Under the pieces are notes generated by a model that was not told the origin of the DNA, ran no database searches, and saw nothing but the letters and a program-made list of their open reading frames with translations. A program made the position numbers and the translations under genes. From Lophium mytilinum (lineage: Eukaryota), in contig MU004185.1 of the NCBI GenBank assembly GCA_010093605.1, positions 1,943,334-2,007,333 of the forward strand: a stretch of 64,000 nucleotides of DNA. The letters are read 5' to 3'. Shown here in pieces: positions 9,586 to 15,563 of this stretch. Positions within the stretch are counted from its first letter, which is position 1; each line of letters starts with the position of its first letter.

Positions 9586-10119
9586 GGTGATTCATATGTG
9601 TACTAGCTAGGCCACCTCTCACAGCATTCAATGGTTTACATAGGCCAGCAAAGGTCACGTGCAGCTCGTTGATCTGATGAACCACCTTCAATTGGAAGAG
9701 CGCCTGACCAGAGACTGGAAAAAGCAGAATTTCCTACACCTATCTAACTAAGTATGGGCTAGTAGGATGAAGTGTATGTGAAAAAATGCCGAGATGAAAA
9801 TCACGTGAACATATCCATCCAAAGTGCCTAACCTTGGAACTCCCGCACCAATTCAACCGTCTCCATCCCCATCTCTTTAACCATGCCAGCCACCAGAGCA
9901 ACACGGCTATGGTCAATACAGGCATTTCTTGTTCGCGGACCCGCATGGGATGCGTTGTCTGCCCAGGTGCAGGATGCATGCCAAGCTGCGCCACAGTTGC
10001 TACCTAGGTAGGGCCGCTCAAGGCTGAAGGCACGAGGCTCGCGACTCTCATGGATCGATGTTCTCCCGCAAACTTGATTTCATCTACATTGTACATCGTC
10101 GTGGCACTTGAACATCGAC

Positions 10120-13100
10120 ATGGCAGACCCTTTGTCAATCGCGGCTTCTATCTGTGGAATCGCATCTCTGGCAGAGACAGTGGTGAGCAAAGGATACAAG
10201 TATATCAAGGCTGTCAAAGATTGTCGTGAGGATGTCAGCAGGCTCCTTCTTGAAGTCAACGTCCTCTGTGGGGTCTTGGAGCGACTAGGCAGGATGCTCG
10301 AAGAAGACGAAGATGACGAAGATGAAAATCAGATAAGTCGCAACAGTAAGCCTATTGCAGACGCGCCTCCTAGCCTGTTGTAACTGCATAACTAATATTT
10401 CCACCAGTTTCAGGCATCCCTAGTTACGTCTTAGTGTGCCAGAAGACTCTGAACGAGGTTCTACGTGTTCTTAACGGCTTCGAGAGAAAGGCAGTTATTG
10501 CCAATCAAGGCACCGGAAGAAAGAAAAAGTCGTTTTTGACTTGTCTCTCAAAAAATGACTTGAAATGGCCTCTCTCAAAGGAGTCTACCATGGCACTCAT
10601 TGAATCTCTCGAGAGACACAAAGCGACGTGTATCTTGGCTCTTTCTGCCAACGAGCATTCGCTTTTGGAGTCCATACTCGCCTCTGCTACGGACACCAAC
10701 AAGCATTTACAGCAGATCCGGAAAGACCAGAATGCGTTCGCTGAGAGTGTGAAAACCCAAGAAAACACACGTATTTTCCAATGGCTGTCTCCCGTCAACC
10801 CGCAGCTCAAACACCGCGTTTTCCGAGAGGACTACCAAGAAGGCACTTGCCTTTGGGTATTTGATTTACCAGAATACAAGGCATGGGCGGCAGAAGACAA
10901 TACTGCACTTTTTGTCTATGGCATACCAGGTGCTGGAAAAACCACGTTGGCTTCGCTGATCATCGACACTCTACTCGTTCAGAGACCTGCCGGATTCGCA
11001 TTCTTCTATTGCCGCCACGACGATCAGGCTACGCATGATGGAACCAATGTTTTGGGGTCACTCATGGTGCAGCTTGCGATGCAACATCCTTCTGCTTATT
11101 CCGATGTCCTTGAGTTCTACAAGCTACATCATCCAGACGGCAGGCTTAGCACGCAACCGAACGAAGCCCAATTAGTTTCCGGAATCATGTCAATGTCCCA
11201 ATACTTTCAGGAGATCACCCTAGTCATCGATGGTTTAGATGAATGCGGAACGCCAATTTCCAGGGCGAGACTGCTCACTGCTCTCTCGAGAATACACAAA
11301 TCGCGGACCACAAGTTCGGGCAACACGCAGGATACCAATATCAGACTGATGGTCTTAGGACGAGCGGAGCCTGATATCCGAGAGACTCTCGACGAATTTT
11401 CCAGTATCTCCATTGCCGCGAAATCCTCAGATCTACAACTATTCGTCGCTGCCCATTTGAGCACGATCAAGACAAAGAGTATGGATTTGAGAGAAGACAT
11501 CGTTACCACCCTAACGCAAGAGGCGAATGGCATGTTCCAGTGGGTAAAACTCCAGGTGGACTATCTTTCGAGGCTGCCAAACGATCGAGAAAGACGAAAG
11601 GCGCTGCGATCTCTCCCGCCTGATCTCCCGGCGACATACGTAAGAATACTAGAGGACATCGACTCTCGGTATCCAGAACAGACGAGGGTCTACATTCGAC
11701 GCGCCCTCAAGTGGCTCATATTGCATCAAAGTCTCAGTGATCAGAACGCCCATGTTACAGTTACTGCTGAGCATCGTTTAACGAGGTCAGCCTTGTGCCA
11801 TGCGATAAGCATCGAGCCAGACACCACTACTTTAGACAAAGATGCTATCCCGATGGAGGCAGAAGTTACCAACTGGCTGTCCAGTCTGGTCAAACATGAC
11901 AAGAAGCAGCAAGATCCGCTCTTTCAACTCAGTCACTTCACAGTCAAGGAGTTCTTGCTCAGCTCGCCGGACGCTGTTCCTGACAAAGTGGCTAGCTATC
12001 TCGTCAATCAGAACATTGATCCTTCCTACCTTGCCGAAACCTGCATTGGCTACCTCTCCATGGACGATATTCCACACGCTGGTGTCCAATCGAAAGCTGC
12101 AAGAGCCGAACTAGAGAGACAGTATCCTCTCTACGGCCATGCAGCCATCCAAGCCTACGCTTATCTCTATTACTACGATATCGCACGTCCCGAGCCACCG
12201 GCCTTCAAACGGTTTTTCTCTTCTCTGCCCAGCCTGGGCTTTTCCCTTTGGAACCTTTTTTGTAGCACCAGCTTCCCGGACTGGAGCAGGTACTCTTATT
12301 CTGACTACCAAGGAAAGACTCAAAAGTCTGAAATGGCATGGGCAATTAGCCCATTGCAGTTTGCTGCTGCAAGCCTCCTTCCGAGCACCTGTGCCAGACT
12401 TCTAACCGAAAACGCGAATCCTAACGGAAGATTAGAAGGTATCGCAACTCCGCTTCATTTTGCTATATCCAAATGCAGGGCACCTGTTTTCACACTCCCG
12501 CCACACGAAGCGTTCTTCTCGGAGAGGCTCGAAAGAAAGGAAACTTTGGCCCGCAGACTGGACACGATTCGTTTGTTGGTAACTCACGGCGCAGACTTGG
12601 GTTTAGCATGCAAGTTTCGAAGTTCCCACCTTATGAGAAACAAAGACGGATCGACTCACGGTGACCTTGACATGTCACCTCTATGTGTTGCTCTTGCGTG
12701 TTATCAGTCGGAGGCCTGTGATCTACTTCTTGAACTTGGCGCAAGTCTTGAACCAAGCCCTGCTGGACTCGGCAGATATTACGGAACCTTTGAAACCATC
12801 GTTCGATCGTCCTCTAACTGGAACGACCTCAAAGTCACGCCACCTCCACACAAGACGAGACGGGACATTGTCATTACCAAAATCTCAGCCCATATCGAAT
12901 CCAACAAGAAGAAGCAATTGTCGTCCGAATTAGAATCCAGATCAGATCACGACGTAGGTCAATCTATCATTCAAGAGAAAACAAACCTTGACTCATATAC
13001 ATCCAACTTGATTCAACCGGATGACATTGACGTTTGCGTTGAGGCTCAGGCCACTCCAAAACAGCTCTGCCGCATCTGCCAAAGCGACAGCATCCACCTT

Positions 13101-13847
13101 CGGCTTCCCCGACAGAGTGAGGAAAGTGAAACCGATATTCTCATGGGTGGTTTCTTTCCCAAATCCTCCCTCACCAAATCCGCCCCCCTCTCCGCAACCG
13201 CATACACCGAACTTGTCACCGGCCCCTTCGGCACGATCGGAAACACACTCGCATCGCACACCCTCAAATTCCCCGTCCCATGCACCACCAACCTCCCCCC
13301 CCCTGAAGAAACTCTATCACCTGTTCGGCATTCCAAGACGCTCGAAGATCGGAATACAGACCTCACCCTGGCCTTGGCTACCAGAGATATCGAATTGGTT
13401 ATCCAAAGAATCAACTTTCATCGAAAAGAACCTCGCCAATCGCAGAGCCCAATATTTGTGGCCCACCTTTTCAAAAGACCAGATATTGTCGAGTATCTTC
13501 ACAAGAATGGAATCAGCCTGTACGCGCGCGAGGTGTTTCAAATCTACAGCGAAGACGCAGATCTTGCTAAAAAATTGCTTGGCTCTATCGAAAACCACCC
13601 TATCTCGGTATCACGAGCTCAGTTACTGTCAGCACTCACTAGTTTTCTTGACAATGAGTCTTTTCCCAAATCTAAGGAAATGGATTATATATTGAACAGT
13701 GCAAGCACGGATCATAGCTTCCTTCTGGCCAGAATGACCTCTCTGGTAGACCGTCATAAGGAAAACCTCCGCACTTCAATCAAAGCCCCCGGAACCTTCA
13801 AAACCAAACTTGGGAGACTCAAATTCAGATCTATGCGTACATCATAA
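10120..13847 (+). CDS. Fungal NLR-like STAND protein: N-terminal helical (HeLo-like) domain, NACHT, degenerate ankyrin repeats
   Basis: MADPLSIAASICGIASLA N-terminus typical of fungal NACHT proteins; intron 10346-10407; P-loop GIPGAGKTTL; Walker B LVIDGLDEC; ANGMFQWVKLQ; LSHFTVKEFL; ankyrin-like SPLQFAA, TPLHFAI, LLVTHGAD. Confidence 0.9.
13157..13303 (-). pseudogene. GMC oxidoreductase C-terminal fragment, antisense within the NLR CDS
   Basis: Minus frame reads RLVVHGTGNLRVCDASVFPIVPKGPVTSSVYAVAERGADLVREDLG, matching the GMC_oxred_C terminal motif. No GMC-like sequence on either side. Confidence 0.8.
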
Positions 13848-14304
13848 TCGAGGGTCCAATTCAGAGCCTCTGGAACGTAAAGTTGACAAAATCACTAAGC
13901 TCAATGGGCCAGGGGGGTCTCAGACGATTTTACGGGCCGTCAAATAAACAGTGTTAGCATTTGGAGTTAGAACTGCGCGTAGGTCATGATGAATATTTGG
14001 ATTTAGGGTTTTTAGAACCGGTTCTATCACGTTCCAACGCTTGCGGGTCTTGCAGTATTTTCGACATGTTCAAAGGCGAAGTTCCAATAGATGGCAACAG
14101 TGCGATTGCGTGAGTGCTTCCAACGCACAAAATGGTCTGGTGGCCTGCTGGATGCTGATGTTGAGGCTGAATCTATAACTGTATAAGGTAACCCGGAATC
14201 TGTACTCTAACGCTCACAACTTCGCCCTTTTCCCCGCTCGCGGCGCTCTAGCCAAGTCAATCAATGGTCATGACGTTTCGTCAACTGCCTCCACAGATGC
14301 CAGC

Positions 14305-15563
14305 TTACCTCGACCTGCCGTACGACGGAGCTGCCGCAGGCTTGTTATCTAGTATAGTCTCAATCTCCTCCATCAGCTCTGGCGTAAGCTTAGGTAGCAG
14401 GGCCAGCGCCTTGCAGTTATCCACGATCTGCTCGACTTTCGTAGCACCGAGGATGACCGTGGAGACATTCGGGTTCTTCGCGCACCAAGCGAGTGCCAAT
14501 TGAGACGCGTTCCCGCCGAGCTTTTCCGCGATTGTGGTCAGCTTCTTGACCTTCTCGATCTTGGCTTTGCCCTCTTCGCTCTGCAGCTGTTTGACGGAGT
14601 CGCTGAAGATGGATGAGTTTGTGGCGAAGCGGGAGTCTTCGGGGACGCCGTTGTTGTATTTGCCGGTGAGGAGGCCGGACGCGAGGGGGGACCAGATGGT
14701 TGTGCCGTATTGGAATTTCTCGTAGAGAGGAGCGTACTCGACTTCGAAGCGCTGGCGGTGGAAGGCGTTGTATTGGGGTTGTTCGGCGATGGGGGCGATC
14801 AGGTTGTATTTCTCGGCGATCTGGGTGGCTTCCATGATTTGGGTGGCGCTCCATTCTGAGGTTCCCCAGTACTGCGCAAGGTTAGATCTTGGAAAGTAGT
14901 GAAAGAAGGATGAGAGCTCACGTAGGCAAGGTTGAGGTTGCGGATGACTTGGGTGAAGGCTTCAACGATCTCCTTCATCGGGGTACTGGCCCAAGTTAGT
15001 GATGTCGGGAGGATTGCGAGTGGTGACTTACGCGACATCGATTCGGTGAGCAAGGACGATATCCACGTATGGCTGCTGTAGCCTTGCCAGCGAACTCTTC
15101 AGGCCTTCGACAACGTGCTTCTTGCTGAGCCCCCTCGTGTTTGGCTCTTTACGGCCAGTCCCAAAGAAGATCTTGAACCTCGTCAGACACATCGCATTTG
15201 GATGAAGTAGACGTTCATACCTTGGTGCTTAGCACATACTCGTCCCTCGGCCACGCCAGCTCCTTCAACGCCTGGCCCATTTCAATCTCAGACTGGCCGT
15301 TGGCATAAGTCTCAGCCGTATCGAAGAAATTGATACCATGATCCCAGGCTGCTTGCATGCAATCCTTGACAATGCTGCCCTTCTGCGTGCCACCATAGGT
15401 CAACCAGCCTGTGGACAATGGTGGTCAGCAAACTTCCAATGCCCATATCAGGAAGAAAAATCATACCGCCAAGCGACAACACGGAGACCTTCAGCCCACT
15501 GGGCCCCAAGTTACGGAACTCCATGTCCTTGGGGCTAAATTTAGACTCGACAGGGCCAGCCAT
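14305..15563 (-). CDS. Aldo-keto reductase, Kv-beta-like, multi-exon
   Basis: [85 protein letters not shown], separated by short introns. Confidence 0.95.

Follow-up and report, generated by a model that had tools for sequence, protein, structure and literature searches.

Antisense GMC oxidoreductase sequence in frame within the C-terminal tail of an NLR gene of Lophium mytilinum

An NLR gene of Lophium mytilinum was found to carry, in its C-terminal tail, the end of a GMC oxidoreductase gene in antisense orientation. The gene lies on the plus strand of a 64,000-nucleotide stretch of NCBI GenBank assembly GCA_010093605.1 (contig MU004185.1, positions 1,943,334 to 2,007,333 of the forward strand), referred to here as the window, and all positions given below are those of the window. 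The GMC-derived patch comprises 134 bases (13157..13290), and its minus strand corresponds to the final 45 sense codons of a GMC oxidoreductase gene, with the stop codon left off. Its likeness to GMC sequence far exceeds what chance would produce, since a second locus in this genome contains these 134 bases with a single difference. The patch is probably the product of a recent templated insertion at a repaired chromosome break, most likely a selectively neutral one.

Results

GMC sequence on the minus strand of the NLR gene

The minus-strand open reading frame (ORF) spanning the patch extends over 13046-13417 and encodes 123 amino acids (aa). It matched the Pfam profile GMC_oxred_C (PF05199) at an E value of 8.5e-08, with 33.3 bits against a cut-off of 24.6, residues 42 to 75 of the ORF aligning with profile positions 106 to 139 of 139, i.e., the last 34 positions. 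The ORF also aligned with the extreme C-termini of solved GMC enzymes, 40 distinct chains of which were matched at an E value of ≤1; the best structure match was 4ynt_A (E = 2.4e-08), with query residues 40 to 86 on residues 522 to 568 of 571. A protein search gave 77 GMC proteins at an E value of ≤0.001 among 587 candidates. The minus-strand reading of the patch (window 13291-13157) was identical at all 45 positions to residues 550 to 594 of the 594-aa L. mytilinum protein P0001, whose NCBI name is choline dehydrogenase. The initial annotation had recognized a GMC C-terminus on the opposite strand of the NLR ORF from the letters alone, and both the profile match above the cut-off and the identity to the end of P0001 confirm it.

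The remainder of a GMC gene was not detected at this locus, where a tblastn search with P0001 recovered only residues 519 to 594, with identity confined to residues 550 to 594. The N-terminal FAD-binding domain (PF00732) of GMC oxidoreductases is absent from the locus. The patch is a fragment, neither a GMC gene nor a full-length pseudogene. Another short match to P0001 was noticed in the same minus-strand ORF, where TNSISLV (ORF residues 7 to 13; 13379-13399, minus strand) equals P0001 residues 434 to 440 at 7 of 7 positions. This motif overlies ATRDIELV, which is conserved in the NLR homologues, and the match was judged to be due to chance.

The plus strand of the patch is rich in C (65 of 134 bases), and a run of nine C residues lies on one side at 13295-13303, both as had been described before; the GC skew is about -0.55 over 13150-13349. 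In the NLR frame the patch is read as 45 residues, starting with PKSSLTKSAPLSATAY and rich in Ser, Thr, Pro, Ala and Gly, and no Pfam family was found in the NLR tail reading. None of the three plus frames contains a stop codon within 13157-13290, so that the open NLR frame across the patch is in itself unremarkable.

Donor locus and limits of the copy

Contigs of three public runs (X1, X2 and X3, from two studies) were placed on window positions 9800-15200. The stretch 13157-13290 formed a separate contig of 134 bases in each of the three runs. Contigs on the NLR side stopped at 13186 and those on the downstream side began at 13261, in both cases reaching 30 bases into the shared stretch, an overlap that graph assemblers are expected to leave at repeats; other contigs forked at the patch limits, 13157 and 13290. 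In minus-strand reading, the loose end ahead of 13157 places TGA directly after the last shared codon, and the loose end beyond 13301 encodes MMPLARGGV, which is P0001 residues 537 to 545. The second locus is therefore the gene for P0001. The loose ends are 30 letters long.

The shared stretch extends from P0001 codon 550 to exactly the last sense codon, excluding the stop codon. On its right side lies a junction zone that includes the run of C residues (13291..13303); the donor contig matches the window at 8 of 11 bases over 13291-13301 and then diverges. Three letters differ over 13261-13301 in the contigs in question (X2 record 12, X3 record 19 and X1 record 5), which have loose ends past 13301. 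The single difference between the copies is at 13214, with T in the window and X1 and C in X2 and X3, and is synonymous in both reading frames. The C presumably belongs to the donor copy.

No second copy of the patch was found within the window by blastn, and tblastn with P0001 against the 64 kb returned only 13378-13157, all other matches having E values of ≥1.1. Since the contigs fork to GMC flanks and the window holds no second copy, the donor is located in the same genome outside the window, and it has been retained, a second locus with GMC flanks being present in X1, X2 and X3. The direction of copying, from the GMC gene to the NLR gene, is clear because the tail is a conserved feature of GMC proteins. 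The initial annotation had proposed that a piece of another gene was inserted in reverse; this is supported by a donor in the same genome that is flanked by the stop codon of the GMC gene on one side and by the preceding GMC codons on the other.

In the three runs, contigs of both RNA and DNA origin show each of the two NLR flanks directly joined to GMC-tail sequence. The junctions expected from the initial annotation were thus seen one at a time, and no single contig crosses the whole patch. Because the contigs break at the repeat, it is the window assembly and the homologues described below that link the left to the right flank.

Transposon marks, i.e., a target-site duplication, poly-A, and flanking inverted or terminal repeats, were not found around 13157-13303. 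Capture by a mobile element was rejected in view of the absence of terminal repeats and target duplication; native coding sequence abuts the patch on its left and resumes within about 13 bases on its right.

One further contig (X2 record 7, X3 record 14) matched 13172-13193 inside the patch over 22 bases with one mismatch, and may represent the tail of another GMC paralogue. The same contig matched 10300-10326 (27 bases), an acidic low-complexity stretch.

Structure and expression of the acceptor gene

The acceptor gene has two exons on the plus strand. Exon 1 (10120..10345) begins with the start codon at 10120 and encodes a PigL_N/HeLo-like N-terminal domain. It is followed by a 62-base intron (10346..10407; GTAAGC..CACCAG) and by exon 2 (10408..13847), which encodes the NACHT NTPase, ankyrin-like repeats, a linker with the patch and a second insert, and a conserved C-terminal helical (ankyrin-like) module (13341..13844) that follows the patch and continues the frame of the NLR sequence before it, and ends in the stop codon. 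After removal of the intron the coding sequence starts with the ATG at 10120, is 3666 bases or 1221 codons long and contains no stop codon other than the terminal one. In agreement with the earlier description, the plus-strand ORF (10392-13847) is open through the patch and for 180 further codons, up to the stop at 13845-13847.

In the Pfam search, PigL_N was detected in the N-terminus with 28.6 bits against a cut-off of 27.2, and HeLo was matched weakly (E = 0.082). NPHP3_N was matched with an E value of 8.2e-34 and 117.6 bits. The NACHT model reached 25.1 bits, slightly below its cut-off of 26.7, and Ank_2 reached 26.9 bits, slightly below 27.3; other Ank models matched weakly, among them Ank_3/Ank_5 at ORF residues 1018-1047. 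The motifs GIPGAGKT and LVIDGLDE, which we take to be Walker A and Walker B, are legible in the ORF. Both a NACHT/STAND NTPase and an N-terminal effector-type domain, as expected of a fungal NLR, are present. By these predicted domains the acceptor is an intact PigL_N/NACHT/ankyrin-like gene of the fungal NLR type.

The X1 contigs skip three introns that are kept by the DNA contigs, namely 10346-10407 and two introns with CT..AC ends in a minus-strand neighbor. The label of X1 ("RNA?") was a guess only, and the run was treated as transcript derived on the intron evidence; because its contigs are without three introns that are present in DNA contigs, they represent processed transcripts. X1 record 2 (3254 bases) joins 10345 to 10408 at GT..AG ends, and the X2 and X3 DNA contigs retain the intron. 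This spliced contig has no further joint up to 13186, which is inside the patch, and a second X1 contig runs from 13261 onward; no joint was found in the RNA contigs within 10408-13186 or 13261-14871. The NLR gene is thus expressed and its RNA enters the patch. The earlier claim that an antisense frame yields new NLR sequence carried by the NLR mRNA therefore holds for the RNA, and translation of the patch is predicted from the open frame.

The possibility that the patch is spliced out as an intron was also considered. It was rejected for the main form of the transcript, as no RNA contig has a joint nearby and no good 5' splice consensus was seen by eye in 13140-13310; rare isoforms are possible.

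Absence of the patch from the tail homologues

The NLR tail (372 residues, 12729-13844) was searched against 1.84 billion representatives. Five hits were obtained, of which two are true homologues: P0078, with 303 aa and 55% identity to the tail, and P0079 of Mytilinidion resinicola, with 450 aa and 53% identity (UniRef name "Ankyrin"; precomputed PF12796/PF00023). The tail match P0080 (1011 aa; E = 2.3e-06; 33% identity over seven stretches) is a generic ankyrin-repeat protein. P0081 and P0082 are short ORFs on contigs that match the NLR-frame reading of the patch with 61% and 56% identity. In a word-indexed collection of 5.8 billion sequences, the same two homologues only were recovered among proteins of 204-651 aa (2 of 3713 candidates), and the NLR tail was found in none of 5453 candidates among proteins of 633-2015 aa, so that no protein of the source genome itself was recovered either.

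Both homologues align with the tail to the left of the patch and again from just past the patch to the end (alignment A1). P0078 residues 149-303 match query residues 193-347, and P0079 residues 290-448 match query residues 191-349. The interval from CVEA to ALATRD has 108 residues in the window against 47 and 51 in the homologues, which are thus 57-61 residues shorter. The excess falls in two blocks, the GMC patch and a second insert, island 2. The translation of the patch aligned with the homologues no better than shuffled sequences, of which 137/500 (P0078) and 468/500 (P0079) reached its score. The multiple alignment program MAFFT paired SSLTKSAPLSATAY in the patch with TSISKSG-ISATSF of P0078; this pairing was rejected, as it does not exceed the same shuffled controls (137/500).

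The patch is therefore absent from both known homologues, which belong to other taxa and are only 53-55% identical, and in each of them the left and right flanks are joined in one protein. The initial annotation had named an empty site in orthologues as a check; in these homologues, which may be paralogues, the outcome agrees with it and indicates that the patch is an insertion.

Three predicted proteins of 123-145 aa from Logan contigs (P0081, P0082 and P0083) are 56-61% identical to the NLR-frame reading of the patch. They are probably ORFs on the antisense strand of other GMC tails, and, if read so, suggest that the antisense frame of GMC tails is commonly open.

Within the 204-651 and 633-2015 aa bands, no deposited gene model holds the NLR tail besides P0078 and P0079, although the collection does contain other proteins of the presumed source species, such as P0001. 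P0079 is annotated as a tail-only protein of 450 residues that starts midway in the region aligned with the NLR. The gene models of this NLR family may be incomplete.

A second insert upstream of the patch

Island 2 (13054..13113) consists of 60 bases in frame and encodes the 20-residue block TPKQLCRICQSDSIHLRLPR, which faces a 20-column gap in both homologues in alignment A1. Its translation did not align with the homologues above shuffled controls, 310/500 and 470/500 of which reached the score. A third locus of the genome shares 53 of these 60 bases, as seen in X2 record 8 and X3 record 15, whose match is confined to 13054-13113, with 7 other letters and unlike flanks. Island 2 looks like a second, older captured piece.

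The two inserts are separated by 43 bases of native linker (13114..13156, plus strand), which begins with RQSEE against HQSDE and RQNDE in the homologues. The local alignment of RQSEESET with RQNDETST is weak, as 78/500 shuffles reached its score. The patch differs from its other copy at 1 of 134 bases and island 2 at 7 of 60 (Fisher P = 0.0013). This unlike divergence indicates that the two blocks are probably of different ages.

Predicted structural setting of the inserts

An AlphaFold2 model of the NLR tail was built from a three-sequence alignment and had a mean predicted local distance difference test (pLDDT) score of 46.9. With such a shallow alignment, a low pLDDT is a mere hint of disorder. 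Tail residues 62-204, which include island 2 (about 109-129) and the patch (about 144-188), were modelled as coil with pLDDT values of 26-34. Helix pairs resume at tail residue 205, and block means of pLDDT are 67-89 over residues 201-280 and then 37-61 toward the C-terminus. In the model, both inserts probably lie in a disordered linker between repeat modules and not in a repeat. The initial annotation had placed the patch in the sensor region; its predicted position there is a disordered linker between helical modules.

Neighboring gene

An aldo/keto reductase gene (Pfam E = 5.5e-25) is located next to the NLR gene on the minus strand at 14305-15175. Its two short introns, 14872-14921 and 14986-15031, are removed in X1. 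A single X1 contig is unbroken over 13261-15175 and covers the 3' part of the NLR gene, a spacer of 460 bases and the convergent reductase gene. Overlapping convergent 3' ends of the two transcription units are possible.

Discussion

Origin of the patch

The sequence of events that accounts best for the patch would have begun with a chromosome break in the poorly conserved, predicted disordered linker of the NLR C-terminal tail. The break would have been repaired by copying and pasting a stretch of 134 bases, possibly up to 145, from the GMC gene elsewhere in the genome. The copied stretch would have been joined in inverted while the donor was left intact, i.e., by a distant templated insertion or "patch" repair through end joining. 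As the net change preserved the frame, the NLR gene would now read the antisense of the GMC tail as 45 residues between repeat modules. The event may be regarded as recent because of the 1/134 difference from the donor and the absence of the patch from the nearest known homologues. Survival of the frame was not very improbable, since all three plus frames are open and only the net length had to fit. The patch is taken to be most likely neutral because it is short, lies in a poorly conserved, predicted disordered linker and bears no sign of selection yet. The presence of the older 60-base insert 43 bases upstream would indicate that the linker tolerates such scars or breaks often. Taken as a whole, this account of a recent templated insertion at a repaired break is considered likely.

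Several observations weigh against this account or limit it. As 134 is not divisible by three, the insertion must have come with some further small change. On its left the copy stops precisely at the donor's last sense codon, a limit that random breaking and copying would not predict. The linker of the homologues is poorly alignable, to the point that SATSF of P0078 is placed by MAFFT opposite SATAY of the patch; at 53-55% identity the homologues are possibly paralogues. An empty allele of the species itself was not encountered. The NLR-side contigs enter the patch by 30 bases, below the 31-letter rule for bridging, and none spans it. X2 and X3 are possibly the source data of the window itself and are then not independent of it. 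Finally, neutrality is an assumption.

Alternative explanations

The alternative that survives best, although we consider it unlikely, is that one complex replicative event with serial template switching, of the microhomology-mediated break-induced replication (MMBIR) or fork stalling and template switching (FoSTeS) type, placed 13054-13113 and 13157-13290 together. It would account for two foreign pieces located 43 bases apart, one of them inverted relative to its source, and passages of PMC11724301 give a share of 5-7% for multifragment insertions among the templated insertions in yeast mutants. However, the unequal divergence of the two blocks (P = 0.0013) suggests that they arose at different times, provided that the contigs compared include the true source of island 2, and the sequence between the pieces starts with a motif that is shared with the homologues.

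Copying of the patch from GMC RNA, as a cDNA fragment or by RNA-templated repair, rather than from chromosomal DNA is a little less probable still. The GMC gene is present in the spliced-contig run X1 (record 5, with loose ends at 13157 and 13301), and human class 2 templated insertions are ascribed to reverse-transcribed RNA in passages of PMC5110952. The copy, however, ends right before the stop codon, and the 3' untranslated region and poly-A are absent. The copied stretch contains no intron position that would separate cDNA from DNA, and the donor DNA contig is colinear with it.

That the patch has been kept for a function is very unlikely. It might act as a trans natural antisense to the GMC mRNA, through small RNAs, or provide a new peptide in the sensor tail. 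Its complementarity of 133/134 to the GMC gene is long and both loci are found among the spliced contigs of X1, as would be expected of a trans natural antisense pair, with the reservation that the contigs show neither strand nor level. The frame is also preserved and is followed by 180 conserved codons. On the other hand, selection can hardly have had time to act on a copy so nearly identical to its donor, any insert of suitable length would keep the frame intact where all three plus frames are open, and the peptide matches no Pfam family and is predicted to be disordered.

An assembly artifact or rearrangement, in which the NLR flanks are not in fact joined across one copy of the GMC tail, has hardly any probability left. 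It would agree with contigs that break at the 134-base repeat, none of which bridges it, and with X2 and X3 as the possible source data of the window. Against this, the three runs, which come from two studies and include the spliced-contig run, all show GMC-tail sequence directly next to both NLR flanks; in the homologues a single protein contains both flanks; the frame runs on through the patch and into conserved sequence; and the GMC body continues to a normal C-terminus of its family and then a stop codon. Equally remote is an old patch kept identical to the donor by recurrent ectopic gene conversion with the GMC gene, for which the pairing of SSLTKSAPLSATAY with P0078 might speak, but that similarity is no better than shuffles in either homologue, and both homologues are 57-61 residues shorter in the interval.

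Relation to known systems

Integrated domains of plant NLRs ("decoys") are sense-oriented folded domains that mimic pathogen targets. The templated insertion proposed here resembles them in that a piece of another gene lies inside an NLR. Unlike a decoy, the patch is read from the strand opposite to the GMC frame, so that it could not imitate the GMC protein. A folded source domain in sense orientation, which defines an integrated domain, was not found; the patch is read antisense, has no Pfam family and was modelled as low-confidence coil.

For fungal NLRs, papers such as PMC13449251 describe diversification by repeat shuffling, ectopic conversion between repeat units, repeat-induced point mutation (RIP) and pseudogenization by transposon insertion. 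The patch shares with these routes its location in the rapidly changing C-terminal regions of fungal NACHT proteins. The routes described there, however, swap like with like or destroy genes, while the patch comes from an unrelated gene. Capture of fragments of unrelated genes is not mentioned in the passages of PMC13449251 on fungal NLR diversification, which is no proof of its absence from the literature.

The closest likeness in process is to the distant templated insertions of budding yeast, which are copy-and-paste events, 5-7% of them with two fragments, as given in passages of PMC11724301, which cites Yu et al. 2018 on Dna2 deficiency. In those passages, as is proposed for the NLR gene, the donor is kept, the inserts measure tens to hundreds of bases and come from any site of the genome in either orientation, joining is by end joining, and some events have two fragments. 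The yeast events differ in that they arise at induced breaks in a reporter and mostly in repair mutants; the NLR event is natural, is fixed in the sequenced strain and lies in an expressed coding sequence with the frame kept.

Heritable patches are also known from humans, where class 2 templated sequence insertion polymorphisms are interpreted as double-strand break repair in passages of PMC5110952. As in the class 2 insertions described there, a short stretch from a distant gene is present without target-site duplication or poly-A. The human insertions are ascribed to reverse-transcribed RNA, whereas the NLR patch is found in a filamentous ascomycete, and an RNA origin is improbable for it.

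Genomic inserts in human antibody heavy-chain genes (LAIR1, LILRB1) preserve the frame in >10% of cases, as reported in passages of PMC9457163. The likeness, a loose one, is that pieces of foreign genes are present in an immune-receptor gene and that a frame-keeping minority adds receptor sequence. In contrast to the antibody inserts of those passages, which are somatic, arise at programmed RAG/AID breaks and, where useful, are folded domains in sense orientation, the NLR patch is germline, antisense and predicted to be disordered.

Significance

It is doubtful whether the NLR linker is a recurrent acceptor of pieces of unrelated genes, as two pieces of different ages within 250 bases might imply. 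If it is, break-repair "patching" would supply fungi with new receptor sequence through the germline, much as genomic inserts diversify human antibodies, and, as a side effect of the youngest patch, the NLR transcript and the GMC mRNA would be linked by a duplex of 134 bases. The locus lets the question be asked whether the tails of fungal NLRs are richer in such patches than other genes. If the patch is a neutral scar only, which is most likely, its value is modest and lies mainly in annotation and in surveys of fungal templated insertions. Even so, a process studied mostly in reporter assays of yeast and human cells is exemplified here in nature, with the donor, both limits and the transcript visible, and at what appears to be a very early stage, as the copies differ at one base of 134. 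The patch indicates that the antisense strand of an ordinary enzyme gene can become coding sequence of an expressed receptor gene without breaking it.

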